A DNA stretch of 64,000 nucleotides from Escherichia phage FL12: sequence record PP400786; one strand, written 5' to 3'. This document shows positions 33,397 through 58,317 of the stretch, one piece after another. The position numbers were made by a program, and so were the translations under genes. Each line of letters begins with the position of its first letter. Position 1 is the first letter of the stretch. The notes under the pieces were generated by a model, which had not been told where the DNA came from, made no database searches, and saw only the letters and a program-made list of their open reading frames with translations.

Positions 33397-33399
33397 AGC

Positions 33400-34987
<1,588 letters not shown>

Positions 34988-35014
34988 AATAAAATGGGCC
35001 TTGCGGCCCACTCC

Positions 35015-35517
35015 TTAAAAGTATTTTTTAAAACTCATCATAACTTTATCATCAACATCATTATCAATCTGTGCAACAAGGTAAGATGACAGTTCTACTT
35101 CTTGTGGCGCGGATTGAACATTATCAGAATTAAGATATTCACGAATCCAAGGATACGGATGTTTAACCGGAGCATCGGTAATTGGGCATGGAAGACCACA
35201 CTGTTTCATACGAGATACAGTTAAGTAATCAATAAAGCTCCACATGCTATTTGTATTTAATCCAGGAACATCACCATCTTTAAATAAATGAACTGCCCAA
35301 TCTTTTTCTTGGCGGTTAACTTCCATGAAAATATCAACTGCTTCTTGTTCACACTCTTGAGCAATTTTAACCCATTCATCACCATCAGTGCCGGATTGAA
35401 GTTGACGAATAATATATTGAGTGCCTTTAAGATGAAGCTGCTCATCACGAGCAATGAACTTCATAATCTTGGCATTACCTTCCATGATTTCCATGTTCTT
35501 ATGGAAGTTAAAGGTAC
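35015..35517 (-). CDS. nrdB: ribonucleotide reductase small subunit NrdB, exon 2
   Basis: Encodes ...TFNFHKNMEIMEGNAKIMKFIARDEQLHL..., aligning with E. coli R2 ELMEGNAKII; joins exon 1 to give SFACTFNF. Confidence 0.88.
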
Positions 35518-36783: not shown

Positions 36784-38375
36784 TATTTTGTCCTGTAAAC
36801 TAAATTTCCACAGTCCCAGATTCTTCTAAGACCATTTGCATAACAATTTTCTACTTCAGTTATTGTATCATCATAATTTTTAAGCTTGTTTTTAAGCTTA
36901 TGTTTCATATAGCTTGAGCGGTGAAATACCTCTCCTTTATCGACGTACCAATAACACGGCTCAGAGATATGACTAAATTCCATGACAGAGTCATAAACAT
37001 TTGATAATGTACTGCACCATCTTCGATTGCCATAAGATAGACAATTAATTCCTTTTAATAATTTTGAGACTCCTCCTACAACACAAACCCCCAATTTTGA
37101 ACACATCCTTAAAAGTTCATCACCTGAGCTATATCTAGATTTACCGATAGAAATAATTTGAACTAACTCATTATTGTAATAAAGTCCTTTATACGTATGA
37201 GCTCCCGAGCAAAATCCTTGAAGATGATTCTTATTAATAAATTCTTTTGCCTCATCCTTATTAACAAAACGCGCTTTGCATTTTCGGGCTGGTATTCTTT
37301 CTGATAATCCTAATTTATGCTTTATAATGGATTTCCAGATCTCTCTTTTTGTATCATCAATCCATTCATTTTCGAAGATGTGAAGTAATTGAATTCCTTG
37401 TGCTTCACACATCTCTGTCTTCATCAAATGATAAGTTTCTTTAATTTTATCTGTTTCCTTTGACCCGCTAGAATGCCAATAAATTCCATCGTATTCTATA
37501 GCCAATTTTTTCTCAGGAATGTAAATATCTAATTCATACGGAGGAATAATTTTTCTAGTTTCTACGCAATCAAATCCTAGATCTAAAATGAATTGCTCTA
37601 TAGAACTTTGAGTATAATGAACGTCAATTAGTCCTTTGGATGAAAGAGCTCTATAAGCCGTCATCCGAGAACAATTTGCTAATTGTTGTAGTTCTTCTAT
37701 AGAAATTTTGTAATTGATTTTATCTAGTATATCATGATTAATATGACCGTTATTTTTAATAGATTTTCCTATAGATGAATATAACGATGCCTTATATTCT
37801 TCAGTCCAATTTAATTTGGTCTTCTTAGATTTTTCGCGAGATTTTTTAGAATGCAGAATATCAACTGATTTACCGTTTTCTATAACTTTTCTCGCTTCTT
37901 TCACACTTTCTAATTGTGAATTATGCGTTACCCCATATCGTTCAATTAAAGTTTTTCTATTTTTATTTCTTGAAATTTTTTGATGAGTTGTTCCATATTT
38001 TTCTAAAGAATTTTTGTGTTGAAGTTCAGACAAATATTTTTTATATTTTTCTTTTCCACCAAAATTTGTATCACGGCTTTGAGTTCTCTTATCCGCGAAA
38101 AATATCCCTGCGCAGGATTTACTACATGTTGCTGGAAATACACGTTTCTTTGCTGTTTTCAGAGAAATGAAATTTCCACAAACTGCACATTTTAGATCGT
38201 TAATGTCAATGCCTTCCATAATTTGGAACACATTGAGCTTAAAATCTATTCCATCAGTTAGAAGAGCTTTATCTTCTTCTGTTAGTCTAGATTTAAGTTT
38301 TTCTTCTCCAAATGGAAGAAACTTTCCGTTTTTGTATATATTATCAAACATAGCGTTATTCTTAGTTAACCACAT
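36783..38375 (-). CDS. 530-aa multi-domain putative nuclease (Zn ribbon, YG-x-x-H repeats, HTH, Vsr/PD-(D/E)xK-like motif) in the nrdA-nrdB intergenic slot
   Basis: CAVCG...CSKSCAG; KYGTTHQ / RYGVTHNSQ repeats; HTH-like ISIEELQQLANCSRMTAYRAL; YELDIYIPEKKLAIEYDGIYWHS. Confidence 0.7.
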   Translation of the reverse strand: MWLTKNNAMFDNIYKNGKFLPFGEEKLKSRLTEEDKALLTDGIDFKLNVFQIMEGIDINDLKCAVCGNFISLKTAKKRVFPATCSKSCAGIFFADKRTQSRDTNFGGKEKYKKYLSELQHKNSLEKYGTTHQKISRNKNRKTLIERYGVTHNSQLESVKEARKVIENGKSVDILHSKKSREKSKKTKLNWTEEYKASLYSSIGKSIKNNGHINHDILDKINYKISIEELQQLANCSRMTAYRALSSKGLIDVHYTQSSIEQFILDLGFDCVETRKIIPPYELDIYIPEKKLAIEYDGIYWHSSGSKETDKIKETYHLMKTEMCEAQGIQLLHIFENEWIDDTKREIWKSIIKHKLGLSERIPARKCKARFVNKDEAKEFINKNHLQGFCSGAHTYKGLYYNNELVQIISIGKSRYSSGDELLRMCSKLGVCVVGGVSKLLKGINCLSYGNRRWCSTLSNVYDSVMEFSHISEPCYWYVDKGEVFHRSSYMKHKLKNKLKNYDDTITEVENCYANGLRRIWDCGNLVYRTK

Positions 38376-38391
38376 CCTTGTGGTAATTATA

Positions 38392-39381
38392 TCATAATTT
38401 ACAGGATGAACAATCTTCAGCTTTTGGAGTTTCTATTTCATAATCATCAGTACCAGAACCATCACGGGTATTATGATAATAGAAATTTTTAATGCCATAA
38501 TACCATCCGTATAGCATGTCATCAATCATTATTGACATTGGAACCTTTCCTTTTGGAAAAATCTGCGGGTCATAATATGTATTCGCTGAAGCTGATTGAC
38601 ATACCCATTTCAGCATAATAGCTACCTGCGTAAGATAAGGTTTATTACCTTTCTTAGCTAATTTCCATGTATAGTCGTAAAGGTCTATGTTATGCTCAAT
38701 ATTGGGCACGACTTGATTAAAGGAGCCCTCTTTTGATTCTTTAACAGAGACTGGTCCACGTGGAGGCTCGATACCGTTTGTACTGTTAGAAACTTGGGAA
38801 GATGACTCACATGGCATAAGTGCTGATAATGTGCTATTACGGATGCCAAAGAGCTTAAGGTCTTCCCGCAGCGCCGACCAATCACAAACGTATTTTGGAG
38901 CTGCGATTTGGTCAATCTTTTTATTGTACCAGTCGATAGGTAATTCGCCTCGAGACCAACGAGTGTCTGAATAATATTCGCAAGGTCCTTTTTCTTTGGC
39001 GAGCTTAATGGATGCTTTAATGAGTCCATACTGTAATCTCTCAAATAGTTCATGTGTTAAATCGTTAGCATCTTCATAAGAAGCAAAGTTACTTGCCAGC
39101 CAAGCTGCATAGTTGGTAACACCTACACCAAGATTTCGACGCTTTTTAGCTTTTTCTGCTTCAGGAACTGGATATCCTTGGTAATCCAAAAGATTATCAA
39201 GAGCACGAACTTGAACTTCTGCCAATTCATTAATTTTATCTTGGTCTTGCCAGTCAAAATTATCCAGTACGAATGCGCTAAGGGTACAAAGCCCCACTTC
39301 TCCCTTGTTTTCAATAACTTCTATTGTAGTATACTCATCATCTTCGTAAAATTCATCTACAAATTCATAATCAATATTCAT
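38392..39381 (-). CDS. nrdA: ribonucleotide reductase large subunit NrdA, C-terminal piece (329 aa) with novel acidic N-terminal leader
   Basis: After leader MNIDYEFVDEFYEDDEYTTIEVIENK, sequence GEVGLCTLSAF... to C-terminal CSSCKL aligns with E. coli R1 residues ~456-761. Confidence 0.85.
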   Translation of the reverse strand: MNIDYEFVDEFYEDDEYTTIEVIENKGEVGLCTLSAFVLDNFDWQDQDKINELAEVQVRALDNLLDYQGYPVPEAEKAKKRRNLGVGVTNYAAWLASNFASYEDANDLTHELFERLQYGLIKASIKLAKEKGPCEYYSDTRWSRGELPIDWYNKKIDQIAAPKYVCDWSALREDLKLFGIRNSTLSALMPCESSSQVSNSTNGIEPPRGPVSVKESKEGSFNQVVPNIEHNIDLYDYTWKLAKKGNKPYLTQVAIMLKWVCQSASANTYYDPQIFPKGKVPMSIMIDDMLYGWYYGIKNFYYHNTRDGSGTDDYEIETPKAEDCSSCKL

Positions 39382-40081
39382 TTAATTCTTTTACCTTTTT
39401 TCTAGTAATTCCTAAAGCTTTAGATGCTCGATGTATTGATTGATATTCTATACCGTTTATTTTTACAGCAATTAAGTTATGGGGTTTTAATCCCTTTGGA
39501 TGAGGTTTACTGACGAAAACTAAATTATCAAGCTCTGAAATCTTATCCAATTTCTTACACTTAAATCCTTTGTGATGCGACCGTTTACCTTTACAAACGG
39601 CTGACATTGCAGATGGATTTAAATTATGCTCTTTACAAAATTCGTTAAGACCTCGATGAATTTCCTCATGACCATCAGGAAATGTAAACACCCAAGATGT
39701 TTGAAGTCGAGATTTAACTTCTGGAGACATAGGAATACCTTTGTTCCAAGCTGGTTTGCCTTTATTATTTTCAGATACAGAAATAGCCAATTTTCTTCTA
39801 AGCCACCCATGGCGTTTATTGGTGTTCTTTCGTTCAATATTATCTTTAGAATAAACACACATCATATTAGCGGCAAATATCAATTTATGATTATTTGGAT
39901 ATATCTTTACTAATAATTGATGAGCTATGTAATGCTCTTCTGGCGTCAAATCTACCAGGTTTTCCTTTGTATCAGAACCACCAATACACAGAGGTATAAT
40001 ATGGTGTGATTCGGTATAGCAATCTAATTTTCTATTCTTAGCTTTAGAAATAAGGTTATTGTAAATTTTAAAATAATCCAT
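39371..40081 (-). CDS. HNH homing endonuclease (Mob-like) inserted within nrdA
   Basis: 236 aa; HNH motif ESHHIIPLCIGGSDTKENLVDLTPEEHYIAH; NUMOD-like GKPAWNKG motif; stop overlaps NrdA C-piece start. Confidence 0.85.
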   Translation of the reverse strand: MDYFKIYNNLISKAKNRKLDCYTESHHIIPLCIGGSDTKENLVDLTPEEHYIAHQLLVKIYPNNHKLIFAANMMCVYSKDNIERKNTNKRHGWLRRKLAISVSENNKGKPAWNKGIPMSPEVKSRLQTSWVFTFPDGHEEIHRGLNEFCKEHNLNPSAMSAVCKGKRSHHKGFKCKKLDKISELDNLVFVSKPHPKGLKPHNLIAVKINGIEYQSIHRASKALGITRKKVKELNEY

Positions 40082-40126
40082 AACTTTTCCTCTTGTTATG
40101 GATTATTTATTAACGGTCTGTGTACT

Positions 40127-41560
40127 TTATTTGCTTTGAATTATACCGTCAGGATTAGCTTCATAAAACTTAGCTACATCCGACTTCTTAATTTTGATTA
40201 AACGGGTTTGTTGGCTATTCACATCATTTGTTGGAATAGCAATTTCACAACACAAGTTACTCTGACGAATAGGCGCCTTTTCGCGAATAAACGGAGTGTA
40301 GTTATTCGTATTATCAATGAACTGTACATAAATCCTTGCTGTTCCTGAACGTTCAGTCATGAGCAATTCAAATAGTTCACGGGCTTTAATACGCTTTTTA
40401 CGAATATTAGGGTCTTTTTCTGCTGCTTCGTATAATTCACGGAAACGGTCTTGGTCTTTAAAATAAGAATAATAAAGCTCGCCACCCATTTCATGTGGAC
40501 TGAACAAAGTAATGTAATCGTTCTTTCCAAAACGTTCCATCATCAAATCATTCAGCTGAACACCATAATCCATATGACGAATGCGGTTTTCTTCTACGCC
40601 TTTGTTATTTTTCAAAACGAGAAGATTTTCAACTTCCAAATGCCAAATAGGATAATAAGCAGTAGCAGCGCCGCCACGAATTCCACCCTGTGAACATGAT
40701 TTAACTGCAGTCTGAAAATGTTTCCAAAAAGGAATAACACCAGTATGGCGTACTTCACCCATGCCAATCTTAGAACCTTCGGCACGAATCATACCAACGT
40801 TAATACCAATTCCAGCGCGTTTAGAGATATATTCAACAATTGAAGCGGAAGCCTTATTGATAGACTTCAATGAATCTCCTGCCTCAATAACAACACATGA
40901 ACTAAACTGTCGAGTAGGAGTACGACAACCAGCCATAATAGGAGTTGGCAGTGAAATTTGTCGGGTTGATACTGCTTCATAAAAACGAATAACGTGTTTT
41001 AGTCTATCAACAGGTTCATCTTGATGCAGTGCCATTCCAATAGTCATAAATGCAAACTGTGGAGTTTCATAAATTTGACCAGTGGTTTTATCTTTAACTA
41101 GATATTTTTCTTTTAATTGCATCGCCCCGGAATAAGTAAATTCCATATCCCGCTCATGCTTAATTTTTGATTCTAAAAATGTAATTTCTTCTGCTGAATA
41201 TTTTGACAATAATTCAGGGTCGTATTTACCTTCATTTACACAGTAAGAAATATGGTCAATAAATGAACGTGGTTCATACTGCCCATAAACATGCTTACGA
41301 AGAGCGAACATTAGACAACGTGCAGCTACATATTGATAATCAGGCTCTTCAACCGAAATAGAATTCGCAGCGGCCTTAATGACAATAGTCTGAATATCAT
41401 CAGTTGTCATTCCATCACGGAGATAAGATTTAATATTTTCATATAATTCATAAGGATCTACTGATGTTCCTTCAGCTGCCCAAGATAAAACTTTAATAAT
41501 TTTTTGTGGGTCAAAGCTCTGAGAAACACCACTACTTTTGATAACATTAATTAATTGCAT
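40127..41560 (-). CDS. nrdA: ribonucleotide reductase large subunit NrdA, N-terminal piece (477 aa) with 28-aa C-terminal read-through tail
   Basis: Contains active-site SNLCCEIAIPTNDVN (E. coli SNLCLEIALPT...NDVN) then non-homologous tail ending in TAA. Confidence 0.88.
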   Translation of the reverse strand: MQLINVIKSSGVSQSFDPQKIIKVLSWAAEGTSVDPYELYENIKSYLRDGMTTDDIQTIVIKAAANSISVEEPDYQYVAARCLMFALRKHVYGQYEPRSFIDHISYCVNEGKYDPELLSKYSAEEITFLESKIKHERDMEFTYSGAMQLKEKYLVKDKTTGQIYETPQFAFMTIGMALHQDEPVDRLKHVIRFYEAVSTRQISLPTPIMAGCRTPTRQFSSCVVIEAGDSLKSINKASASIVEYISKRAGIGINVGMIRAEGSKIGMGEVRHTGVIPFWKHFQTAVKSCSQGGIRGGAATAYYPIWHLEVENLLVLKNNKGVEENRIRHMDYGVQLNDLMMERFGKNDYITLFSPHEMGGELYYSYFKDQDRFRELYEAAEKDPNIRKKRIKARELFELLMTERSGTARIYVQFIDNTNNYTPFIREKAPIRQSNLCCEIAIPTNDVNSQQTRLIKIKKSDVAKFYEANPDGIIQSK

Positions 41561-41877
41561 AAGTCCTCAACTTGAAAATCGTCTTTAAACAATCGGTTAA
41601 CTATATGAGCTATTATATCACCATGACACGGCTTTGGTTTACATGTGCATCCTAGCCTCATTCCACGTAAAGGCTCTAAATGTGCTTTAGTTATTTCTCC
41701 GGATTTAATTCGACGTATAAAATCTTTTTTGAATAATTCAATGGCAGCCTCCCGGCTGCCAGCATCTTTACCGACGTAATTTCCCCAAAATGTACCACGG
41801 TGAATATTAACATCAAAGTCGGATTTATATTTATTCACTACCCGACATAGACGGCCCACGCTGGAATAATTCGTCAT
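41551..41877 (-). CDS. DUF4326-like small protein (position of T4 nrdA.1)
   Basis: 108 aa; C-terminal [20 protein letters not shown] resembles the DUF4326 C-x-C-x(4)-CHGD signature. Confidence 0.6.
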
Positions 41878-42106
41878 ATTGTTTTTCCGTTAAAACAGTA
41901 ATATCGTAGTAACAGTCAGAAGAAGTTTTAACTGTGGAAATTTTATTATCAAAATACTCACGAGTCATTTTATGAGTATAGTATTTTTTACCATAAATGG
42001 TAATAGGCTGTTCTGGTCCTGGAACTTCTAACTCGCTTGGGTTAGGAAGTGTAAAAAGAACTACGCCAGAAGTATCTTTAAATCGTAAAATCATATATCC
42101 TCGCAA
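41831..42106 (-). CDS. hypothetical protein (position of T4 nrdA.2)
   Basis: 91-aa ORF. Confidence 0.55.
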
Positions 42107-42114
42107 TAATAAAA

Positions 42115-43798
<1,684 letters not shown>

Positions 43799-43808
43799 AT
43801 TATTTTCC

Positions 43809-44051
43809 TCAAACAGACTTTTTCACAATTTTCCAATCAGCTTTAAACTGTTCAACGTCAGAATGGTAAATCCAGAATCCTGCGCTTTCTCCATCCTCAT
43901 AAAGAGGGCATCCATCACATTCATCTTCCCATCCCATATCACGCAAAAGACGTTCAGTTTTTTCAACAAGTTCAGAATCTTTACCGATGATATTAAAATA
44001 CCATTTACCCCTAACTTCTGAATCTTTAATGCTCTGACGTTGTAATCTCAT
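43809..44051 (-). CDS. hypothetical protein (start placed at MRLQRQ with AAGGAG Shine-Dalgarno, downstream of an early promoter)
   Basis: Track ORF starts at 44087, which lies upstream of the predicted promoter -10 (44078-44083). Confidence 0.55.
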   Translation of the reverse strand: MRLQRQSIKDSEVRGKWYFNIIGKDSELVEKTERLLRDMGWEDECDGCPLYEDGESAGFWIYHSDVEQFKADWKIVKKSV

Positions 44052-44106
44052 TTTTATTCTCCTTAGTTGATAGGGTAATAGTATCACACTACTACCCTAC
44101 TGTAAA

Positions 44107-44487
44107 CTACTTTTTGAAAGTTTTTCGTAAAAGTTCAATGATTTCATCTACATTGTTTTCATCTACAATGCAGTGAATTTTTGTTACGCCAGAAACTGTG
44201 TCTTCGGTTTCATCTTCTTCAGAAGTCGGTTCTTTATACTCACGAAAACAATGAAATTCGTCTTCGCAAATTTCTAAAAGTCTATCTTTGAGATAAAAAT
44301 GCTTTCCATTTGCGCATTCAATGTGTTTTACTGCTTTGTATCCATTGGCGACGGAAACTTCTTTAACTTCAAACCATCCGCCATTATCTCGAATAGCTTT
44401 AACTATTGATGAATTAGAACGTGGACTATAATTAATAAATGTATCAATAAGTCTTGGAACAAGTTCATACTTTCTACCGGTATACAT
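44107..44487 (-). CDS. hypothetical protein
   Basis: 126-aa ORF. Confidence 0.6.
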   Translation of the reverse strand: MYTGRKYELVPRLIDTFINYSPRSNSSIVKAIRDNGGWFEVKEVSVANGYKAVKHIECANGKHFYLKDRLLEICEDEFHCFREYKEPTSEEDETEDTVSGVTKIHCIVDENNVDEIIELLRKTFKK

Positions 44488-44531
44488 TGCGTTTTCCTCA
44501 TTTTAATAGGGGCTTGATAGCCCCTTGATAA

Positions 44532-44759
44532 TTACTGCTCAATAAATCCAGTGTAAAATTCTACATCTTCAGCATCCATACCGTCACAATATTCATTAAC
44601 CATAAATTGTTTAAGACGATTTAAAGGACCTTCAATAACAACTGAAACATTGCAGTTAGGATCATTTAGTGCGCTTGTAATACGGAGTTCAGGATAACGA
44701 TTACGAATAATTTCTTCAATATATTCAAAATCAACAACATCAATATCAATTTTAGCCAT
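44532..44759 (-). CDS. hypothetical small acidic protein (start placed at MAKIDID with AAAGAGGAAAA Shine-Dalgarno)
   Basis: Track ORF starts 8 codons upstream at 44783. Confidence 0.55.
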
Positions 44760-44805
44760 GTTATTTTCCTCTTTAATCATCATCAGCAGTATTGCCGATA
44801 GTTGT

Positions 44806-44835
44806 ATAGTACCATAGTCCTTGTTGTATGTAAAC
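44806..44835 (-). promoter_or_regulatory. sigma70-like early promoter (TTTACA-17-TACTAT) immediately downstream of the gene 32 terminator
   Basis: Minus-strand hexamers with 17-nt spacer and A/T-rich upstream element; module recurs at 61744-61825. Confidence 0.55.
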
Positions 44836-44854
44836 TGTTTTGTGAAAAAATTTT

Positions 44855-44885
44855 GAAATAAAAAAGGGGACCTCTATGGTCCCCA
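44855..44885 (-). terminator. rho-independent terminator after gene 32
   Basis: GGGGACCATAGAGGTCCCC hairpin followed by TTTTTTATTT on minus strand. Confidence 0.75.
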
Positions 44886-44906
44886 ATTAATTAGTAATAT
44901 AATCTA

Positions 44907-45815
44907 TTAAAGGTCATTCAAAAGGTCATCCAGGTCCGTGTCATCAGCACTAGATGAACTACCAGAGCTTGAGCTCATAAAATCATCTTCAGTTTTTGTA
45001 TTGAAGTCATCAACATTGAATGCATCCAAATCATCAGCAACTTTATCAGCTTTCTTAGCAGCAGTTGCTGCGGCACCACCCATCACAGCAGTTCCCATAA
45101 CTTGACTGAACTTAGTGCTCAGTTCTTCGAACGATTTGAATTTATCTTTAGAAGTCATTTCAGAAAGGTCAACCATTTGTTCGAACAGTTCTTTCTGGAA
45201 AGATTCGTCATCAATGTTTGGAATCGCAGATTGATTCAGGAATTTAGATTCGTCGTAGTTACTAAATCCGGAAACTTGTTTAACTTTCAGTACAAAGTTA
45301 GCACCTTCCCACGGACAAGTTACATCAACCGGAGTTTCACCCATTTCAACATCAACTGCAATCATCGCGTTGATTTTATCCCAGATTTTCTTACCGAAAC
45401 GGTATTTAAATACTTTACCTTCATTTTCTGGAGCAGCTGGGTCTTTTACAACAAGAATATTAGCCCAGTAAGAAGTTTTACGTTTAACAAGACTGTACTC
45501 TTTATTGTCAGTGTTGTACAGATCATTTTTACTGATGTATTGACATACTGGGCAAGAATCGTAATCACCGTGGGTAGATGAACATGTTTCAATATACCAT
45601 TTACCATTTTTCTTGAAACCGTGATTTACAAGAATTGCGAATGGTGCTTGTTCATCATTTTTAGACGGAAGAAAACGAATTACTGCTTGACCGTTACCCG
45701 CATTGTCGAGTTTCAGTTTCCACTCGCCTTTATCTTCAGAAGAAAAACCACCTTTATTTCCAGCCAGTTTAGCCATTTGTGCAGCGAGTTCAGCAGTAGA
45801 TTTACGTTTAAACAT
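44907..45815 (-). CDS. 32: single-stranded DNA-binding protein gp32
   Basis: 302 aa; Zn-binding His/Cys cluster ([11 protein letters not shown]) and acidic Ser/Asp-rich C-terminus typical of gp32. Confidence 0.95.
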
Positions 45816-45914
45816 TTTTATTTCCTTTTTAATTTAATTAACAGTTGGTGCTATGACGATGTATGACCTCATAGCTGGTCAGTGAGATAATTATAATCTA
45901 TTTATAATAAGCAA

Positions 45915-46568
45915 TTAATACTTGCAAGATTTCACAGTTTCAATGAAAACATTTTTAGCTTTCTGTGAATCAATATTTAAAATTTTTCTATAAGCCTTTA
46001 ACTTTATAGAATAATTATTCCAGACTAAATTATCAGTCTGTTCATCGTGTTTATCAATTATATTTAAAAATGAATCAAGCAAGATAAACGTCTCAAACGA
46101 AATTATGTTCGATTGCAGAAGTTTAAAAATATAACTTGACTGAACTTTTGGATTATACTCAAAAATTTCTTTAAAAGCAGAAACTTCAACTTTTTTACTA
46201 AAATAATAAATGTTACGAATATCTTCTTCAAACTTAAATTTAATTTGCTTTAAGCGTCCGATATATTCACGATAAAACACAAGTGCATCAGCGTCAGAGA
46301 TGTCACCAATCCAAGCATCCTGGTTAGCAACCAGATTGCTTATAAAGATTAAAGCAAGTTCCTTTAATTTATATTTTTCTGATAACTTCTGGAAAAAATA
46401 CTTATCCCTTCGCTTTTGATAAGCGGCATCAGACACCCGCATGCACCAATTATACTTAATTACATCATACTTTCCATTCATATGTTGTTTTATCATTAAG
46501 TATAATTTATAAACTGATTTACCATCAATATATCTTTCACCACCAGCAGGCATGCGGAGTTTAATCAT
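45915..46568 (-). CDS. 59: helicase loader gp59
   Basis: 217 aa, T4 gp59 length and position. Confidence 0.9.
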   Translation of the reverse strand: MIKLRMPAGGERYIDGKSVYKLYLMIKQHMNGKYDVIKYNWCMRVSDAAYQKRRDKYFFQKLSEKYKLKELALIFISNLVANQDAWIGDISDADALVFYREYIGRLKQIKFKFEEDIRNIYYFSKKVEVSAFKEIFEYNPKVQSSYIFKLLQSNIISFETFILLDSFLNIIDKHDEQTDNLVWNNYSIKLKAYRKILNIDSQKAKNVFIETVKSCKY

Positions 46569-46912
46569 AGTAGAAAATCTAATGTATTAGTTTTTTCGCA
46601 ACGAACAACAGAAGGACGTAAAAGATTTTCATCAATAGCTTCTGACTGAATTTTTTCAATTATACCCGAAGGAATAAATTTAGCAAATTGAGTTTCAGGA
46701 ATAGAGTTTTCTTCCAAGAATGCTGTCGTAGCTTCAAGATAACTCATTCCAAACTCTTCTACCATTTTTTCAATAATAAATCCATTTTCTTGACGATCAA
46801 GAAGCTTTGCTATTTCATCCTTTTCTTTCTTAATTGAAAGTTCTTTTTCTGAAAGACCGGTCTCATCGACCGGACGAATATCATTTAGAGAAAACTGTGT
46901 CATAAAGTTCAA
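46565..46912 (-). CDS. 33: late transcription co-activator gp33
   Basis: 115 aa, position between 59 and dsbA. Confidence 0.85.
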   Translation of the reverse strand: MNFMTQFSLNDIRPVDETGLSEKELSIKKEKDEIAKLLDRQENGFIIEKMVEEFGMSYLEATTAFLEENSIPETQFAKFIPSGIIEKIQSEAIDENLLRPSVVRCEKTNTLDFLL

Positions 46913-47150
46913 CTACCTCTTCAGTTTCAGCTTCAAACACATCACGGTTATCTTTATGATACAAAGCTAACAGACGATTAAACATCTTGCCATCAACACC
47001 AAGTTCATCTTTAGCACGAATTCGAATATCTTTAATCAATTCATTATAACCGGAAATTTTCAGTTTATGATCAGATGCTTCTTTAATAAATTTAGCCAAG
47101 TCTTCGCCGTGGATAGCTTCATCAAATTCAACCATTTCTTTTTTAGCCAT
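46881..47150 (-). CDS. dsbA: dsDNA-binding protein DsbA
   Basis: 89 aa, position between rnh and 33. Confidence 0.8.
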   Translation of the reverse strand: MAKKEMVEFDEAIHGEDLAKFIKEASDHKLKISGYNELIKDIRIRAKDELGVDGKMFNRLLALYHKDNRDVFEAETEEVVELYDTVFSK

Positions 47151-47158
47151 TATTCACC

Positions 47159-48076
47159 TCAAAATTCATTAATGCTATTAGTTAATTTAGAAAGACCCGC
47201 TTTTACAAAATATGAATAAATTTTGCCACGCGGTGGTAATTTATATGAATTATAGTAATTCACAATGTTTGAAGCAATATTATCAGGAATATAATCAAAA
47301 TCAATTAGAACTAGATTTTCTTTATAACGATTATATTCAGATTCTGTGAGAAGCACCTTAGCTTGCTCACGGTCATTAGCAATAGCTTCAACGATTGAAG
47401 TTTTCATTGAAGGAGTTCGTTCACCTTCAACTTTGGTAAACCAAAAGTCAGATCGTACTTTAACTGAAGCAACGTTATCCTTTTTGTCACCTTTAAGGAT
47501 TTTAGTCATACAGTCAATTTCAGCAGAACCGCTTTTAATTTTAACCCATTTCTTGTGCATCGGTGACCATTGCTTAACATTTGGATATTTGTGAAGCTGT
47601 GTAAAGTCACCATCCGACGAAATGATTAAAATCTTATGTCCTTCTAAAGAGAACTTTTTAACAAGAACAGCAATATGGTCATCTGCTTCATACTTATCAA
47701 TATCCATAACAATGTATGGCATATAAGCTTTCAATTCATCTATAACTTTATGGCTGGATTCAAAATAACCTTCCCAGTCCCAAGTAGATTCTTCTCGTGC
47801 TTTTCCACGGTTTTTCTTGTAATAATACGCAAAATCACGACGCCAGTATCCAGATTTCGCGTTATCAATACACAATACAATTTTAGTGTATCCAAGAGCT
47901 TTTGCTTTTTTGACATTAAACTTAATTGAGTTCAATATCAAATGACGAACCATTGATAAATTAATTTTTTCTTTATCTGGGAAGTTTACCAAAGCAGTTG
48001 AAAGCGCAATTTGACTAAAGTCAATTAAGCAGATTCCTTCTTTGTAATCTTCATCCAGCATCATTTCTAAATCCAT
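47159..48076 (-). CDS. rnh: RNase H (5'-3' exonuclease / flap endonuclease)
   Basis: 305 aa from MDLEMMLDEDYKEG; track ORF extends 5 codons upstream. Confidence 0.92.
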   Translation of the reverse strand: MDLEMMLDEDYKEGICLIDFSQIALSTALVNFPDKEKINLSMVRHLILNSIKFNVKKAKALGYTKIVLCIDNAKSGYWRRDFAYYYKKNRGKAREESTWDWEGYFESSHKVIDELKAYMPYIVMDIDKYEADDHIAVLVKKFSLEGHKILIISSDGDFTQLHKYPNVKQWSPMHKKWVKIKSGSAEIDCMTKILKGDKKDNVASVKVRSDFWFTKVEGERTPSMKTSIVEAIANDREQAKVLLTESEYNRYKENLVLIDFDYIPDNIASNIVNYYNSYKLPPRGKIYSYFVKAGLSKLTNSINEF

Positions 48077-48138
48077 ATGAACCTCGTTCAATTAGTGAGA
48101 TTTCTATTATATACCATCCGAATCTTAAAGTAAACAAG

Positions 48139-48146
48139 TATAAATA
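48139..48146 (+). promoter_or_regulatory. late promoter TATAAATA for gene 34
   Basis: Exact TATAAATA about 35 nt upstream of the gene 34 ATG. Confidence 0.6.
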
Positions 48147-48180
48147 CTTATTATTGAAAACACAATAGGAGCCCGGGAGA

Positions 48181-51100
48181 ATGGCCGAGATTAAAAGAAA
48201 GTTCAGAGCAGAAGATGGTCTGGACGCAGGTGGTGATAAAATAATCAACGTAGCTTTAGCTGATCGTACCGTAGGAACTGACGGTGTTAACGTTGATTAC
48301 CTAATTCAAGAAAACACAGTTCAACAATACGATCCAACTCGTGGATATTTAAAAGATTTTGTAATCATTTATGATAACCGCTTTTGGGCTGCTATAAATG
48401 ATATTCCAAAACCGGCAGGAGCTTTTAATAGCGGACGCTGGAGAGCATTACGTACCGATGCTAACTGGATTACAGTCTCATCTGGTTCATATCAATTAAA
48501 ATCAGGTGAAGCTATTTCGGTTAACACTGCAGCTGGTAATGGTATTACATTTACTTTACCATCTACTCCAATTGACGGTGATACTATCGTTCTCCAAGAC
48601 ATTGGAGGAAAACCTGGAGTTAATCAAGTTTTAATTGTAGCTCCAGTGCAAAGTATTGTAAACTTCAGAGGCGAGCAAGTACGTTCAGTACTAATGACTC
48701 ATCCAAAGTCACAGTTAGTTTTAATTTTTAGTAATCGTCTGTGGCAAATGTATGTAGCTGATTATAGTAGAGAAGCTGTAGTTGTAACACCAGCGAATAC
48801 TTATCAAGCGCAATCCAACGATTTTATCGTACGTAGATTTACTTCTGCTGCACCGATAAATATTAAACTTCCGAGATTTGCTAATCATGGCGATATTATT
48901 AATTTCGTTGATTTAGATAAACTGAATCCACTTTATCATACAATTGTTACTACATACGATGAAACGACTTCAGTACAAGAAGTTGGAACTCATTCCATTG
49001 AAGGCCGTACATCTATTGACGGTTTCTTGATGTATGATGATAATGAGAAATTGTGGAGATTGTTTGACGGGGATAGTAAAGCGCGTTTACGCATTATAAC
49101 GACTAATTCTAATATTCGTCCAAATGAAGAAGTTATGGTATTTGGTGCGAATAACGGAACAACTCAAACAATTGAGCTTAAGCTTCCAACTAATATTTCT
49201 GTTGGTGATACTGTTAAAATTTCCATGAATTACATGAGAAAAGGACAAACAGTTAAAATCAAAGCTGCTGATGAAGATAAAATTGCTTCTTCAGTTCAAT
49301 TGCTGCAATTCCCAAAACGCTCAGAATATCCGCCTGAAGCTGAGTGGGTTACAGTCCAAGAATTAGTTTTTAATGGTGAAACTAATTATGTTCCAGTTTT
49401 AGAGCTTGCTTATATAGAAGATTCTGATGGAAAATACTGGGTTGTACAGCAAAACGTTCCAACTGTAGAAAGAGTAGATTCTTTAAATGATTCTACTAGA
49501 GCAAGATTAGGCGTAATTGCTTTAGCTACACAAGCTCAAGCAAATGTCGATTTAGAAAATTCTCCACAAAAAGAATTAGCAATTACTCCAGAAACGTTAG
49601 CTAATCGCACTGCTACTGAAACTCGCAGAGGTATTGCAAGAATAGCAACTACTGCTCAAGTGAATCAGAACACCACATTCTCTTTTGCAGATGACCTTAT
49701 CATTACTCCTAAAAAGCTGAATGAAAGAACTGCTACAGAAACTCGTAGAGGTGTCGCAGAAATTGCTACGCAGCAAGAAACTAATACAGGTACTGATGAT
49801 ACTACAATCATTACTCCTAAAAAGCTTCAAGCTCGTCAAGGTTCTGAATCATTATCTGGTATTGTAACTTTTGTATCTACCGCAGGTGCTACTCCAGCTT
49901 CTAGCCGTGAATTAAATGGTACGAATGTTTATAATAAAAACACTAATAATTTAGTTGTTTCACCTAAAGCTTTGGATCAGTATAAAGCTACGCCTACTCA
50001 ACAGGGTGCAGTAATTTTAGCAGTTGAAAGTGAAGTAATTGCTGGACAAAGTCAGCAAGGATGGGCAAATGCTGTTGTAACGCCAGAAACGTTACATAAA
50101 AAGACATCAACTGATGGAAGAATTGGTTTAATTGAAATTGCTACGCAAAGTGAAGTTAATACAGGAACTGATTATACTCGTGCAGTCACTCCTAAAACTT
50201 TAAATGACCGTAGAGCAACTGAAAGTTTAAGTGGTATAGCTGAAATTGCTACACAAGTTGAATTCGACGCAGGCGTCGACGATACTCGTATCTCTACACC
50301 ATTAAAAATTAAAACCAGATTTAATAGTACTGATCGTACTTCTGTTGTTGCTCTATCTGGATTAGTTGAATCAGGAACTCTCTGGGACCATTATACACTT
50401 AATATTCTTGAAGCAAATGAGACACAGCGTGGTACACTTCGTGTGGCTACACAAGTTGAAGCTGCTGCAGGAACATTAGATAATGTTTTAATAACTCCTA
50501 AAAAGCTTTTAGGTACTAAATCTACCGAATCGCAAGAGGGTGTTATTAAAGTTGCAACTCAGTCTGAAGCTGTGGCTGGAACGTCAGCAAATACTGCTAT
50601 ATCTCCAAAAAATTTAAAATGGATTGTGCAGAGTGAACCTTCTTGGAGAGCAACTACTGCGGTAAGAGGGTTTGTTAAAACTTCATCTGGTTCAATTACA
50701 TTCGTTGGTAATGATACAGTCGGTTCTACCCAAGATTTAGAACTATATGAGAAAAATAGCTATGCAGTATCACCATATGAATTAAACCGTGTATTAGCAA
50801 ATTATTTGCCGTTAAAAGCAAAAGCTGCTGATACAAATTTATTGGATGGTCTAGATTCATCTCAGTTCATTCGTAGGGATATTGCACAGACGGTTAATGG
50901 TTCACTAACCTTAACCCAGCAAACGAATCTGAGTGCCCCTCTTGTATCATCTAGTACTGCTACGTTTGGTGGATCAGTTTCGGCAAATAGTACATTAACT
51001 ATTTCTAATACTGGAACGGCAACTCGTCTGATTTTTGAGAAAGGACCTCAAACTGGAACTAACCCAGCACAGACGATGACTATCAGAGTTTGGGGAAATC

Positions 51101-52061: not shown

Positions 52062-53177
52062 ATGGAAAAATTTATGGCAGAGTTTGGACAAGGATATGTC
52101 CAAACGCCATTTTTATCGGAAAGTAATTCAGTAAGATACAAAATAAGTATAGCGGGTTCTTGCCCGCTTTCTACTGCAGGACCATACGTTAAATTTCAGG
52201 ATAATCCTGTTGGAAGTCAAACATTTAGCGCAGGTCTTCATCTAAGAGTTTTTGACCCTTCCACCGGAGCATTAGTTGATAGTAAGTCATATGCTTTTTC
52301 TACTTCAAATGATACTACATCAGCTGCTTTTGTTAGTTTCATGAATTCTTTGGCGAATAATAGACTTGTTGCTATATTAACTAGCGGAAAGGTTAATTTT
52401 CCTCCTGAAGTAGTATCTTGGTTAAGAACCGCAGGAACGTCTGCTTTTCCATCTGATTCTTTATTGTCAAGATTTGACGTATCATATGCTGCCTTTTATA
52501 CTTCTTCTAAAAGAGCTATTGCATTAGAACATGTTAAACTAAGTAATAGAAAAAGCACAGATGATTATCAAACTATTTTAGATGTTGTATTTGACAGTTT
52601 AGAGGACGTTGGAGCCACAGGATTTCCTAAAAGAACATACGAAAGCGTTGAGCAATTTATGTCGGCGGTTGGAGGAACTAATAACGAAATTGCACGTCTA
52701 CCAACTTCAGCTGCCATAAGTAAATTATCTGACTATAATTTAATTCCTGGCGATGTTCTTTATCTCAAAGCACAGTTATATGCTGATGCCGATTTACTTG
52801 CGCTTGGAACTACAAATATATCTATCCGTTTTTATAACTCATCGAATGGATATATTTCCTCGACACAAGCTGAGTTTACCGGGCAAGCTGGTTCTTGGGA
52901 ATTAAAAGAAGATTATGTGGTTGTTCCAGAAAACGCTGTCGGATTTACGATATATGCACAGAGAACTGCGCAAGCTGGTCAAGGTGGCATGAGAAATTTA
53001 AGCTTTTCTGAAGTGTCAAGAAATGGCGGTATTTCAAAACCCGCTGAATTTGGCGTCAATGGTATTCGTGTTAATTATATCTGTGAATCCGCTTCACCTC
53101 CGGATATAATGGTACTTCCTACACAAGCATCGTCTAAAACTGGTAAAGTGTTTGGGCAAGAATTTAGAGAAGTTTAA
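52062..53177 (+). CDS. 35: long tail fibre hinge (knee) protein gp35
   Basis: 371 aa, T4 gp35 length and position. Confidence 0.9.
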   Translation: MEKFMAEFGQGYVQTPFLSESNSVRYKISIAGSCPLSTAGPYVKFQDNPVGSQTFSAGLHLRVFDPSTGALVDSKSYAFSTSNDTTSAAFVSFMNSLANNRLVAILTSGKVNFPPEVVSWLRTAGTSAFPSDSLLSRFDVSYAAFYTSSKRAIALEHVKLSNRKSTDDYQTILDVVFDSLEDVGATGFPKRTYESVEQFMSAVGGTNNEIARLPTSAAISKLSDYNLIPGDVLYLKAQLYADADLLALGTTNISIRFYNSSNGYISSTQAEFTGQAGSWELKEDYVVVPENAVGFTIYAQRTAQAGQGGMRNLSFSEVSRNGGISKPAEFGVNGIRVNYICESASPPDIMVLPTQASSKTGKVFGQEFREV

Positions 53178-53182
53178 ATTGA

Positions 53183-53208
53183 GGGAGCCTTCGGGTTCCC
53201 TTTTTCTT
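53183..53208 (+). terminator. terminator-like hairpin after gene 35
   Basis: GGGAGCCTTCGGGTTCCC hairpin followed by T-tract. Confidence 0.6.
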
Positions 53209-53216
53209 TATAAATA
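53209..53216 (+). promoter_or_regulatory. late promoter TATAAATA for gene 36
   Basis: Exact TATAAATA about 24 nt upstream of the gene 36 ATG. Confidence 0.6.
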
Positions 53217-53239
53217 CTATTAAAATAAAGGGGCATACA

Positions 53240-53929
53240 ATGGCTGATTTAAAAGTAGGTTCAACAACTGGAGGCTCTGTCATTTGGCATCAAGGAAATT
53301 TTCCATTGAATCCAGCCGGTGACGATGTACTCTATAAATCATTTAAAATATATTCAGAATATAACAAACCACAAGCTGCTGATAACGATTTCGTTTCTAA
53401 AGCTAATGGTGGCACAGATTCTCAAGGTTTCCAAAAAGAAGTAGAATTTAAAAAAGGTGTTAAGATTTCTGCAACGTTTCCTGGCGGTTCAAACCTGAAT
53501 GGGTTATATTCTGGCAATGGAGATGGAGCTTCCAGAGAAAAAGCTAACATGGATTTACGTTCATGGTACGGCATTGGTATTTGGAACTCATGCACAGGTG
53601 ATGGGTTCCAGGGACGCACAATCTGGTTTAATGTCAGGCGTGGTACAGTTGAAACACTTGGCGATATTGTTTCGGGCCGGCAAGTTATTTCTAATGCTTC
53701 AGGACCGACCGGCCCAGCACACTTAACTCGCAAAGATTATGTTGATGGAGCAATAAATAATGTTACAGCAAATGCGAACTCTAGAGTGTTGCGTTCTGGT
53801 GACACTATGACAGGTAATTTAACGGCGCCAAACTTTTTCTCGCAGAATCCCGCATCTCAACCTTCACATGTTCCACGATTTGACCAAATCGTAATTAAGG
53901 ATTCTGTTCAAGATTTCGGCTATTATTAA
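53240..53929 (+). CDS. 36: long tail fibre distal connector gp36
   Basis: 229 aa, position between 35 and 37. Confidence 0.9.
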   Translation: MADLKVGSTTGGSVIWHQGNFPLNPAGDDVLYKSFKIYSEYNKPQAADNDFVSKANGGTDSQGFQKEVEFKKGVKISATFPGGSNLNGLYSGNGDGASREKANMDLRSWYGIGIWNSCTGDGFQGRTIWFNVRRGTVETLGDIVSGRQVISNASGPTGPAHLTRKDYVDGAINNVTANANSRVLRSGDTMTGNLTAPNFFSQNPASQPSHVPRFDQIVIKDSVQDFGYY

Positions 53930-53937
53930 GAGGACTT

Positions 53938-56900
53938 ATGGCTACTTTAAAACAAATACAATTTAAAAGAAGCAAAACCGCAGGTGCACGTCCTGCTGCT
54001 TCAGTATTAGCCGAAGGTGAATTGGCTATAAACTTAAAAGATAGAACAATTTTTACTAAAGATGATTCAGGAAATATCATTGATCTAGGTATTGCTAAAG
54101 GCGGCCAGGTTGATGGTGATGTGACTATCAATGGTAAATTAACATTAAATGGCGCGTATGTTCAGACGCTGGCTGGTATTAATACCACGGGTGGTATTAA
54201 TTCTGGGGCCGCTATAAGTGCAACAACTTATTATGCTCGGTCTGGTTCTTTTTATGCTCGTGCTCCAGATGCCAATGCGAATACACATATTTGGTTTGAA
54301 AATAACAATGGTATAGAACGTGGTGTGATTTGGGCTGTTCCGAACACTTCAGACCTTGGCCAGGTCAAAATTCGTGCAAAAACTACAGGTGGTGTTTTTG
54401 CCGGCGAGTACAGTTTCCGCTCTGATGGCCAATTTGAGGTTCCTGTAGCAGTTAAAATCGGCGGGGCCGCGATGCTAACCAAAGACGGTAACATTACATC
54501 GGGTTCATTGTTTGGTGGTAATCTTAATAACTATTTGAATACCATTAAAAATGACATTGTTACTGGTGATAATAAGAAAGTGAGTAAAACCGGTGACACG
54601 ATGTCCGGTAACTTGACTATTAACGCTAACTTAAAAGTCGAAAACTCTAACGGAACGTTTGTTGATTTAGGTTCAGAGAACTCTGATAAGAATAGCAGAT
54701 TAACTCTTGCTCGTAAAATTGGCGATGGCGCTGGTGTAGCAATGCTTAAAGTTACTCCTGAAGGAAACGTGCAATTTGGTTATCAACCTACAGTTGCTAC
54801 TCCATCTCCTACCAAGTATATTCTAATTAAATCTAACGGTCTTGAAGTAGAAGGGGATTTAGTTTTTAAGCAAACTTACCGTGGTGTTGAAGAAGCAGTT
54901 GATATTACTAATCAGACTATTGACCTTAATAGCCTTATTATTAGAGGATCAGATTTAGGTACTCGTAAGCTGTATAAATGCAGATCATCTGGAGGTGGTT
55001 CTAATATATTGAACAAACCTACATCTGATGGCAACTTTACTCTTGAAGTTCTGTCTTTACGCAAGGTTTCTGATACCGATTGGTCATGTAAGCAGACCTT
55101 TACTACAAAGAACAATAATGTTGTAGGCGTATATGTTCGCTACGGGCAAGTCGGCTCATGGACTGAGTGGAAAGAGGTTGTTGCTGGTGTTCAACCAATT
55201 AATTTAGGTGGTACTGGAGCAACTTCTGTAGCTGCTGCCCGTAATAACCTTGGTGTTGGTGAAGGCCAAACTGTAACATTCGGTAATTTAGTTACCAACA
55301 ATTTAAATGCAAACGGACAAGTTAAAATCGGCAGGACCGGCGATGCATTAAGAATTTGGAATGCTGAATATGGTGCTATTTTCCGTCGCTCAGAAACAGC
55401 ATTACATATTATCCCGACTCCTAAAGACGCCGGTGAAAGCGGTGGAATAAGTAATCTTCGTCCATTAAGTATCGGCCTTAATAATGGTATGGTGCAAATG
55501 CGTCATTCTGTTGAGTTAGGCGATGATGGAGCTGGCGGTAATATGATTACTGTTGATAATGATAGTAAAAATGTTGTGATAACTTCTAATGCCAGATTAA
55601 GCCCTAATTTCCGCATGCAATTAGGGCAGGCGTCGTACATTGATGCCGAATGCACTACCTCTGTTCGCCCTGCTGGAGCTGGTTCATTTGCTTCACAGAA
55701 TAATGAAAACGTTCGTGCCCCGCTCTATATGAATATTGATAGGACTGATAATAGTACTTATGTTCCTATTTTAAAACAACGTTATGTTCAAGGAAATAGC
55801 TGTTATTCTTTAGGTACTTTAATAAATAACGGTGATTTTCGTTTACATTACCATGAAGGCGGCGACGGTTCTTCGACAGGTGCAGTTATAAAAGATATTT
55901 CCTGGGAATTTAAACGTAATGGTGATTTCTATTCTCCGGGGCGTTTGCGCACTGCAAACGTTTATATCGGAACTGATGGTAACATTACAGGTGGTTCTGG
56001 TAATTTTGCCAACTTAAATACCACGTTAAACCGTAAAGTTAATGTTGGCGGTTGGGCTGGTAGTTCTTATGGTGGATGGTACAAATTTGCTACGGTAACA
56101 ATTCCTCAAGGTACTGGTACAGTAACTTTTAAGATTTCTGGTGGTGCTGGTTTTAATTTTAAAAGATATAGCCAAGCTTCTATTGCTGAGATAGTTCTTC
56201 GCACAGGTAATAATAATCCTAAAGGCATAAACGCTGTACTATGGAACAGGTCAGACCTAAGTTTTAATCAGATAGCTACTATGAATACATCTGGTGATAC
56301 TTATGATGTATACGTGTTCTGTGACGGTTATACAAATGCATTAGTGGTTGAATATTCTTGTAGTGAAAACTCTTCGGTAACTGTAGTCGGTCTTAACGGA
56401 GGCATTCAACCGGCTGTTGATGCATTGCCTGAGGGACATGTTGTAGGTAAAACAGTTCGTCTGTTAAATAATATTGGCGGAACTTTCGCAGCCGGCGAAT
56501 CTGACATTGTTACTCGTGGTGAATACGTTACTGATAATCAAAAAGGCATGCGTATTAAATCTAACGGTAATAATATCGGTTCTAATGCTGCTATACTTCG
56601 AAATGACGGCAGAAGTTTTTATATTTTAGCTACAGATAAAAATACAGCAGAAAAATCCGATGCAGCTAATGGTGATTGGAACTCATTGCGTCCTTTTACA
56701 ATAAGCATGACTACCGGTGAAGTATCAATGAATAACGGCATAACTGTTCGTAACTATGCCACATTCTATAATGATATTGTTCTCAAAGATAATGGTTATA
56801 TTCACTTTAATAAGTCTGGCAATAATCCAAGAAACATGAGTATATTCCATGCCGGAGATGCCACACGTGGTAACCGTATTGAAATTGCTGATGATTCAAG

Positions 56901-57477
56901 TTATTTAGTTTATTTTCAACGTTTACCGGGCGGCGCTAACCAGTGTACATTTAACTCTGCTGCTCTTTCTGGTATAACGCAGACTAACTCTTTTGGTGTC
57001 AATACATCAAACGCACTTGGTGGAAATAGTATAACGTTTGGTGATAATGACACTGGTATTAAGCAAAATGGTGATGGATTATTAGACATATATACGAACA
57101 GCGTACAAGTGTTCCGTTTCCAAAACGGTGATTTGTACTCATACAAAAATATAAATGCTCCAAACGTTTATATTCGTTCTGATATTCGTTTAAAATCCAA
57201 CTTTAAACCTATCGAAAATGCACTCGATAAAGTTGAAAAACTTAACGGTGTCATTTACGATAAAGCTGAATACATCGGTGGAGAGGCAATTGAAACTGAA
57301 GCGGGTATTGTGGCTCAAACGTTACAAGACGTTTTACCAGAAGCTGTCCGTGAAACAGAAGACAGTAAGGGTAATAAAATACTCACTGTTTCTTCTCAAG
57401 CCCAGATTGCTCTTCTGGTTGAAGCTGTGAAAACACTTTCTTCTCGTGTAAAAGAACTTGAATCTAAACTTATGTAA
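53938..57477 (+). CDS. 37: long tail fibre distal subunit gp37 with C-terminal intramolecular chaperone domain (T2-type)
   Basis: 1179 aa; C-terminal 98 aa starts at conserved S|DIRLK motif (57181) typical of S74-type auto-cleaving chaperone domains. Confidence 0.9.
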   Translation: MATLKQIQFKRSKTAGARPAASVLAEGELAINLKDRTIFTKDDSGNIIDLGIAKGGQVDGDVTINGKLTLNGAYVQTLAGINTTGGINSGAAISATTYYARSGSFYARAPDANANTHIWFENNNGIERGVIWAVPNTSDLGQVKIRAKTTGGVFAGEYSFRSDGQFEVPVAVKIGGAAMLTKDGNITSGSLFGGNLNNYLNTIKNDIVTGDNKKVSKTGDTMSGNLTINANLKVENSNGTFVDLGSENSDKNSRLTLARKIGDGAGVAMLKVTPEGNVQFGYQPTVATPSPTKYILIKSNGLEVEGDLVFKQTYRGVEEAVDITNQTIDLNSLIIRGSDLGTRKLYKCRSSGGGSNILNKPTSDGNFTLEVLSLRKVSDTDWSCKQTFTTKNNNVVGVYVRYGQVGSWTEWKEVVAGVQPINLGGTGATSVAAARNNLGVGEGQTVTFGNLVTNNLNANGQVKIGRTGDALRIWNAEYGAIFRRSETALHIIPTPKDAGESGGISNLRPLSIGLNNGMVQMRHSVELGDDGAGGNMITVDNDSKNVVITSNARLSPNFRMQLGQASYIDAECTTSVRPAGAGSFASQNNENVRAPLYMNIDRTDNSTYVPILKQRYVQGNSCYSLGTLINNGDFRLHYHEGGDGSSTGAVIKDISWEFKRNGDFYSPGRLRTANVYIGTDGNITGGSGNFANLNTTLNRKVNVGGWAGSSYGGWYKFATVTIPQGTGTVTFKISGGAGFNFKRYSQASIAEIVLRTGNNNPKGINAVLWNRSDLSFNQIATMNTSGDTYDVYVFCDGYTNALVVEYSCSENSSVTVVGLNGGIQPAVDALPEGHVVGKTVRLLNNIGGTFAAGESDIVTRGEYVTDNQKGMRIKSNGNNIGSNAAILRNDGRSFYILATDKNTAEKSDAANGDWNSLRPFTISMTTGEVSMNNGITVRNYATFYNDIVLKDNGYIHFNKSGNNPRNMSIFHAGDATRGNRIEIADDSSYLVYFQRLPGGANQCTFNSAALSGITQTNSFGVNTSNALGGNSITFGDNDTGIKQNGDGLLDIYTNSVQVFRFQNGDLYSYKNINAPNVYIRSDIRLKSNFKPIENALDKVEKLNGVIYDKAEYIGGEAIETEAGIVAQTLQDVLPEAVRETEDSKGNKILTVSSQAQIALLVEAVKTLSSRVKELESKLM

Positions 57478-57507
57478 AAGAGGGCTTCGGCCCTCTAAGG
57501 ATTTTTA

Positions 57508-58287
57508 ATGGCAATTGTAGGTGTTCCTGGCTGGATTGGCGAATCTGCCGTGAATGAAACCGGACAACGTTGGATGGATGCTGCGATGAGAGCTGTTCGT
57601 GTTTCAGTTCCCGGTTGGATGAGCTCAATGGCTGGACAATCTAAAGAAATTATTCACACGCTTGGAGCAGACCATAACTTCAATGGTCAATGGTTCCGAG
57701 ATAGATGTTTTGAGGCAGGTAGTACACCTATAGTGTTTAATATTACAGGTGATTTAGTATCATATTCTAAAGATGTTCCTTTATTCTTCATGTATGGAGA
57801 TACACCGAATGAATATGTTCAGTTGAATATACACGGCGTAACGATGTATGGACGTGGCGGTAATGGCGGTAGCAATAGTCCTGGCTCAGCTGGAGGTCAT
57901 TGTATTCAAAACGATATTGGTGGGAGACTAAGAATTAATAATGGTGGAGCTATTGCAGGCGGCGGCGGCGGCGGCGGCGGCGGTAACAGGGGTAGACTAG
58001 TATTTGGTGGCGGCGGTGGTCGTCCATTTGGTGCTGGTGGGTCTTCCTCTCATATGAGTGCTGGTGCAACCGCTGGCACCATTTACGCTCCGGGTGCAGG
58101 ATCTGTCGGTGAGGGGTCTCTTAGTGCATATACAGGCGGGTCTGGTGGTGAAGTTGGCTCCGCAGGAGGTAGATGTAATACTCACGGTGCCGGTACAGAA
58201 TATAACGGCGGTGCTGCCGGTTATGCCGTCATAGGATCTACACCGACATGGCAAAACGTTGGAGCAATATATGGTCCAAGAGTATAA
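57508..58287 (+). CDS. 38: tail fibre tip adhesin gp38 (T2-type, glycine-rich motifs)
   Basis: 259 aa with poly-Gly/Gly-rich motifs separated by variable segments; located after gene 37 and before holin t. Confidence 0.88.
57958..57984 (+). repeat. (GGC)8-GGT trinucleotide repeat encoding a 9-Gly run in gp38
   Basis: ggcggcggcggcggcggcggcggcggt read directly. Confidence 0.9.
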
Positions 58288-58317
58288 TTTGAATAAATAT
58301 CCTTAAAAGGAGGGTCT

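Follow-up and report, generated by a model that had tools for sequence, protein, structure and literature searches.

An S74-type intramolecular chaperone domain at the C-terminus of the long tail fibre protein gp37 of Escherichia phage FL12

The long tail fibre locus of Escherichia phage FL12 raises the question of whether its distal subunit, gp37, ends in a cleavable intramolecular chaperone (IMC) and, if so, at which bond the precursor would be cut and how this end of the fibre came to stand in a T4-like genome. The window analysed was the whole 64,000-nucleotide stretch taken from sequence record PP400786. It belongs to a Tequatrovirus, its region 30000..50000 being approximately 96% identical to phages FL23, FL44, and vB_Eco_F26. 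A self-cleaving chaperone domain in gp37 is already known, with its processing, structure, and partner adhesin published; the S74 domain family was reportedly defined structurally in 2010, and the structure of the S16 gp37-gp38 tip is said to have been solved in 2018.

Gene 37, encoding the long tail fibre distal subunit precursor, was found as an ORF at 53938..57477 on the plus strand, as were the features of g37 and g38 given below, and specifies a protein of 1179 aa and 126.2 kDa (126.19). Upstream of g37 was a gp36 homologue (53240..53929, Pfam Phage_T4_gp36). The gene order in the window, g34-g35-g36-g37-g38-t, with the T holin gene following g38, was the same as in T2 and T4. The gp35 hinge protein (52062..53177) matched the Pfam family ILEI (PF15711, interleukin-like EMT inducer / FAM3 fold) with an E value of 3.5e-8, which passes the curated threshold. 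Directly upstream of g34 and g36, exact T4 late-promoter motifs (TATAAATA) were present at 48139..48146 and 53209..53216, respectively, and no exact copy was detected from 53217 to the window end at 64000. Because no exact late-promoter motif lies between g36 and the window end, g36-g37-g38-t probably form a single late transcription unit. A promoter for g38 within the IMC-coding DNA was also considered and rejected, with no exact late promoter there and sigma-70-like matches at chance level.

The last residues of gp37 had been described in the initial annotation as S74-type in character, with an HMM search proposed as the check. A Pfam search showed Peptidase_S74 (PF13884, 'chaperone of endosialidase') in gp37 with an E value of 3.4e-15 and 56.5 bits, the curated cut-off for this family being 22 bits; when the last 130 aa were used as the query, the E value was 1.2e-16. 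The alignment to gp37 aa 1081-1138 ran from position 1 to position 58 of the 58-position profile, so the search returned a full-profile match, well outside chance expectation, rather than none. These residues, encoded by 57178..57351 and also covered by PDB profile matches, form the Peptidase_S74 core of the IMC, and the whole domain spans aa 1081-1179 of 1179, which is the extreme C-terminus of the protein. The interval originally assigned to it, 57181..57477, covers the final 98 codons and the stop codon and begins with DIRLKSN after the Ser. The domain itself starts at S1081, one codon upstream, 57181 being where the D1082 codon begins. Across the 526 segments of a six-frame translation of the window, a custom IMC HMM had its single match in gp37, and no second IMC was detected. 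By its sequence, the C-terminus of gp37 is thus an S74-type IMC with a Ser-Lys pair.

The junction in gp37 reads ...NAPNVYIR-S1081-D1082-IRLKSNFKPIENALDK... Ser1081 (codon 57178..57180) is the predicted catalytic Ser; it occupies the first position of the Pfam profile and aligns to the second Ser of VS^SDRRIKK in S16 gp37. Lys1086 (codon 57193..57195), in an invariant alignment column, is the predicted general base of a Ser-Lys dyad by equivalence to the dyad described in PMC8326128. The two residues show an S-x4-K arrangement at the domain start and align to SDRRIK in S16 and SDERHK in GA-1, and the same Ser+5 spacing occurs in endoNF (S911/K916) and MyRF (S587/K592) (PMC8326128). When a large protein database was queried with the 130-aa fragment, 10 short proteins were returned, enough for a profile and too few for a deep alignment. 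When gp37 was aligned with nine homologues from the database, the most distant of them 39% identical, the Lys of the motif S-D-x-R-x-K was invariant and the Ser, Asp, and Arg were nearly invariant. No confident counterpart of the upstream Arg that a neighbouring chain contributes as 'folding sensor' and oxyanion helper (R897 in endoNF and R1250 in T5) was recognised in the gp37 sequence, the candidates being R1060 and R1080.

The domain closes with an alpha-helix at aa 1153-1178 (57394..57471), predicted to form a trimeric coiled-coil. A perfect 3-4 heptad was read off the sequence (I1157, L1160, V1164, L1167, V1171, L1174, and L1178), and a C-terminal coiled-coil drives trimerisation in the MyRF ICA (PMC8326128). 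AlphaFold2 (AF2) modelling of the last 130 aa as a monomer, from a 10-sequence alignment, gave a mean pLDDT of 55.5; the C-terminal helix, at fragment residues 104-129, was the sole confident part, with pLDDT values of 84 and 90 in the last two 10-residue blocks. A Foldseek comparison of this poor model with the PDB gave no match at E <= 0.001, just insignificant MarR-like ones. Because the IMC is an intertwined trimer, the monomer model is uninformative on the fold and was set aside.

Structural relatives were obtained from sequence searches of the PDB. In a single-sequence search, S16 gp37 (6f45_A) was matched at E 4e-12, and when the IMC alone was used, S16 gp37 and MyRF, and nothing else, were reached. 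A profile search matched 6f45_A (3.9e-16), the 8jov tail fibre (6e-10), the MyRF ICA 7dc3 (9e-9), and the GA-1 appendage chaperone 3gud (3e-4). EndoNF and T5 pb1 were not among the matches of the profile search at E <= 1; the tie of the gp37 IMC to these two proteins therefore rests on Pfam and the literature. With endoNF (K1F), T5 pb1, GA-1 gp12, and the MyRF ICA, the gp37 IMC shares the S74 family, the Ser+5 dyad, the predicted coiled-coil, and, by prediction, the autoproteolytic release that follows trimer folding in the family (PMC4690869; PMC8326128). The cargo differs: in gp37 it is a fibre tip that receives a separate adhesin, and in the others it is a sialidase spike, a transcription factor, or a self-contained bullet domain for receptor binding.

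Auto-cleavage had been placed after the conserved Ser in the initial annotation, which is at odds with the mapped family members. S16 gp37, the closest solved homologue, is split between two serines, DLNVS^SDRRIKK (PMC7917993), T5 pb1 is cut between Thr1263 and Ser1264, so that the Ser departs with the chaperone and is absent from the mature fibre, as is also reported of K1F (PMC4690869), and in MyRF cleavage was mapped by mass spectrometry to P586-S587, S587 being equivalent to S911 of endoNF (PMC8326128). Ser is likewise the first residue of the chaperone chain deposited for GA-1 (3gud_A), which opens with SDERHK. The cut predicted for the fPS phages, DVYIR^SDGRLKI (PMC7917993), lies in a sequence almost identical to NVYIR-SDIRLKS in the window. 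The sole exception is a phi29 model that puts the Ser on the mature side, in weak density (PMC4690869). Cleavage of the S1081|D1082 bond, by which mature gp37 would terminate in the Ser and a 98-aa fragment would be released, is accordingly regarded as highly improbable. Since S16 gp37, T5 pb1, and MyRF are all cut ahead of the catalytic Ser, the scissile bond in gp37 is predicted to be R1080|S1081, directly upstream of the Ser codon. The released piece would then be 99 aa in length (57178..57474) rather than 98, and the computed masses of the predicted products are 115.37 kDa for gp37(1-1080) and 10.83 kDa for the acidic fragment S1081-M1179.

Comparison with other phages showed how close this end of gp37 is to known proteins. 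The last 130 aa were 98% identical to T2 gp37 (two substitutions) and 99% identical to the protein of Shigella phage ESh26; over the last 99 aa, identity to ESh26 was 100%, 35 phage records were at least 99% identical, and 1695 records contained a recognisable relative. The Pfam architecture, Peptidase_S74 plus Gp34_trimer, recurs in T2 gp37, as does the g36-g37-g38-t synteny in T2, and K3 and many Tequatrovirus entries named 'long tail fiber protein distal subunit' grouped with T2 as the closest. The proteins differ in length, with 1179 aa in the window and 1341 aa in T2. In gp37 of the window, Gp34_trimer (PF21446) was located at aa 853-922 (56494..56703); it was matched in T2 gp37 as well, and the match in T4 gp37 was below the cut-off. 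This suggests a module common to the proximal and distal half-fibres. S16 gp37 is distant in sequence, with DLNVS in place of NVYIR before the cut and an IMC of 113 instead of 99 aa (PMC7917993). Its tip (PDB 6F45) shares with gp37 and gp38 of the window the beta-helical form, which is predicted for the latter, the SDxRxK motif, an IMC with a C-terminal helix, and a Trp-pronged gp38 adhesin.

The partner gene g38 (57508..58287) encodes a Gly-rich tail-fibre adhesin of 259 aa, matching PF05268 (GP38) at E 1.1e-69 and PF21721 (Gp38_N) at E 2.9e-18, in agreement with its earlier description as a T2-type adhesin. As a whole, it was 58% identical to T2 gp38, the divergence lying in the specificity domain; the best match in the phage collection was that of phage BF15 (92.7% aa). 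In the N-terminal attachment domain (aa 1-47), R31H was the sole difference from T2, and the alignment showed W9, W22, and W37 to be invariant with T2 and ESh26. It has been described that the gp37 tip subtype pairs with the gp38 N-terminal subtype in a lock-and-key manner (PMC3157838), Trp residues serving as prongs (PMC7917993), and the near-identity of the gp38 N-terminal sequence to that of T2 fits such pairing. The corresponding surface on gp37 is the conserved distal tip of the mature protein, 56992..57177, which would end at ...NAPNVYIR1080 and belongs to the block shared with T2 and ESh26. The 60 residues before the IMC align to the S16 gp37 tip (6f45_A), which is beta-helical, and from this a beta-helix may be expected here too; by analogy to S16, gp38 is predicted to dock on this tip (PMC7917993).

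Two further elements were seen at this gene border. A UUCG-tetraloop hairpin (AGAGGGC-TTCG-GCCCTCT), a terminator-like site with a G+C-rich stem of seven pairs, lies at 57479..57496 on the plus strand, 2 nt past the g37 stop codon and with the g38 ribosome-binding site AAGGA directly downstream. Its free energy was -13.4 kcal/mol (z -2.1), and a stem-loop in the corresponding region of the T2 record X04442 is annotated as a potential terminator. Within g38, a perfect (GGC)x8.7 run at 57958..57983 encodes a stretch of 9 Gly, with 7 Gly in T2 and ESh26; it is a possible slippage-prone tract in the polyglycine core of the adhesin.

Taken together, gp37 is very probably an S74-IMC precursor that is self-cleaved after its tip has folded and is then capped by gp38, forming a standard distal fibre of the T2/T6/K3/S16 type. 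According to this model, gp37 would be made as a 126-kDa precursor whose last 99 residues (S1081-M1179, 10.8 kDa, acidic) are the IMC. Three IMC copies would trimerise via the C-terminal coiled-coil and template the folding of the fibre tip into a triple beta-helix. When this folding is complete, Lys1086 would activate Ser1081 to cut the R1080-S1081 bond in each chain, and dissociation of the chaperone trimer would leave a 1080-residue mature gp37 with a flat ...NVYIR tip. The Trp-bearing N-terminal domain of gp38 would then cap the exposed tip, and receptor specificity would lie in gp38. The domain with its dyad and heptad helix, the near-identity to T2, and the presence of the gp38 partner were observed directly in the sequence; cleavage, the exact position of the cut, and gp38 docking are proposed from homologues: C-terminal proteolytic processing of gp37 of T2 and T6 is described in PMC3157838, whose references include Drexler et al. 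1986 on T2 gp37, and S16 gp37 autocleaves its last 113 residues, exposing the gp38 docking surface (PMC7917993).

A possible though less likely reading is that the IMC is present yet insufficient, with gp37 folding also needing gp38, as a co-chaperone before it becomes the adhesin, together with the general fibre chaperone gp57A. Expression of the S16 fibre is reported to require gp57A, which supports the need for helpers in trans. The block 56992..57651, which unites the gp37 tip with the IMC and the N-terminus of gp38, is moreover conserved and co-inherited as a single piece, and gp38 of the T2 type has been described as a chaperone that aids gp37 trimerisation and then stays at the tip (PMC8309999). 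Docking of gp38 after IMC release (PMC7917993), however, argues against its action before cleavage, and a requirement for helpers is compatible with autocleavage, adding to the main explanation without replacing it. That the S74 domain is a degenerate relic, kept in the virion as a trimerisation tag alone, has a practically negligible probability, and nothing in the data spoke for it. The SDxRxK motif is intact, including its catalytic Ser and Lys, and gp37 of T2, almost identical in sequence, is reported to be processed (PMC3157838). In addition, the domain was 98-100% conserved at the protein level over dozens of phages and the adjacent shaft was less than 80% identical, indicating strong purifying selection on the domain.

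T4 has a different distal fibre at the equal genomic position. Its gp37 is homologous at the N-terminus, and the DNA of the window was 91% identical to T4 up to 54167 (53726..54167), without nucleotide similarity at 56018..58293, and 98% identical again from 58293. The T4 gp37 lacks S74 and has Collar and Phage_fiber motifs, and the T4 gp38 is an unrelated assembly protein of 183 aa; the Pfam searches of gp37 and gp38 of the window showed none of these T4-type features (Collar, Phage_fiber, 183-aa gp38). As negative controls, gp37 of T4 and of vB_Eco_F26 gave no S74/IMC match. The contrast drawn in the initial annotation, that T4 gp37 instead depends on gp38, is borne out by these differences and by the need of T4 gp37 for the chaperones gp38 and gp57A (PMC3157838, PMC9608196).

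It had further been proposed that a T2-type receptor-recognition module was grafted onto an otherwise T4-like genome by modular exchange. Exchange is supported, on a sub-gene scale. The window was 95.9% identical in nucleotide sequence to NIC06P2 at 52438..55324, 87.6% to T2 at 55615..56681, 96.4% to T2 at 56992..57651 (gp37 tip, IMC, hairpin, and gp38 N-terminus; 96.8% to ESh26), and 93% to FL23 from 57615. A recombination junction is located inside gp38, at 57615..57651 (aa ~36-48), where the attachment domain meets the specificity domain, the 5′ side being T2/ESh26-like (96-97%) and the 3′ side FL23-like (93%). FL23 has an IMC of its own that is more distant, scoring 66 bits versus approximately 150 for the T2-like ones. 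The mosaic shaft (aa 455-1051) was at most 68-78% identical in aa to anything in the phage collection, in which no record covered at least 80% of g37-g38.

The direction of the proposed graft, in contrast, was not upheld, T4 being the outlier. Among T4-type phages, a gp38 adhesin of the T2/T6 type predominates, and T4 is a recombinant in which the 3′ part of g37 and g38 were replaced by lambda-derived DNA (PMC3157838); in the phage collection, 757 records matched gp38 of the window and 297 matched T4 gp38. Because this adhesin type predominates, the T2-type tip represents the common state and no insertion. The closest backbone relatives, each approximately 96% identical, were opposite in this respect, FL23 having the adhesin gp38 with an IMC-gp37, and vB_Eco_F26 a T4-type gp37 with the 183-aa gp38, which shows that the cassette type flips between very close relatives. 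With the match to T2 patchy and the closest backbones carrying either cassette type, a clean graft of a T2 cassette was rejected.

The block of approximately 660 nt at 56992..57651 was 96-99% identical at the DNA level over many phages, and both of its flanks diverge. There is a very slim chance that its conservation serves purposes beyond folding, in that it is kept as a fixed homologous-recombination linker for swaps of shaft and adhesin, or that the released IMC trimer has a second role in the cell. The linker idea is already present in the T-even literature; a second role for the released IMC would be new if true, and the data hold no pointer to one.

For annotation, mature gp37 may be taken as ending at R1080 (115.4 kDa), and gp38, not gp37, should be regarded as the receptor-binding protein of this phage. 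The useful outputs of the analysis are the corrected maturation site, predicted to be R1080|S1081, and a sub-gene mosaic map of g37-g38. Host-range swaps should keep the gp37 tip, the IMC, and the gp38 N-terminus together as a co-inherited unit. The locus is another case of adhesin shuffling among T-even phages: its proximal shaft resembles that of NIC06P2, its tip and IMC those of T2, and the head of its gp38 that of FL23.
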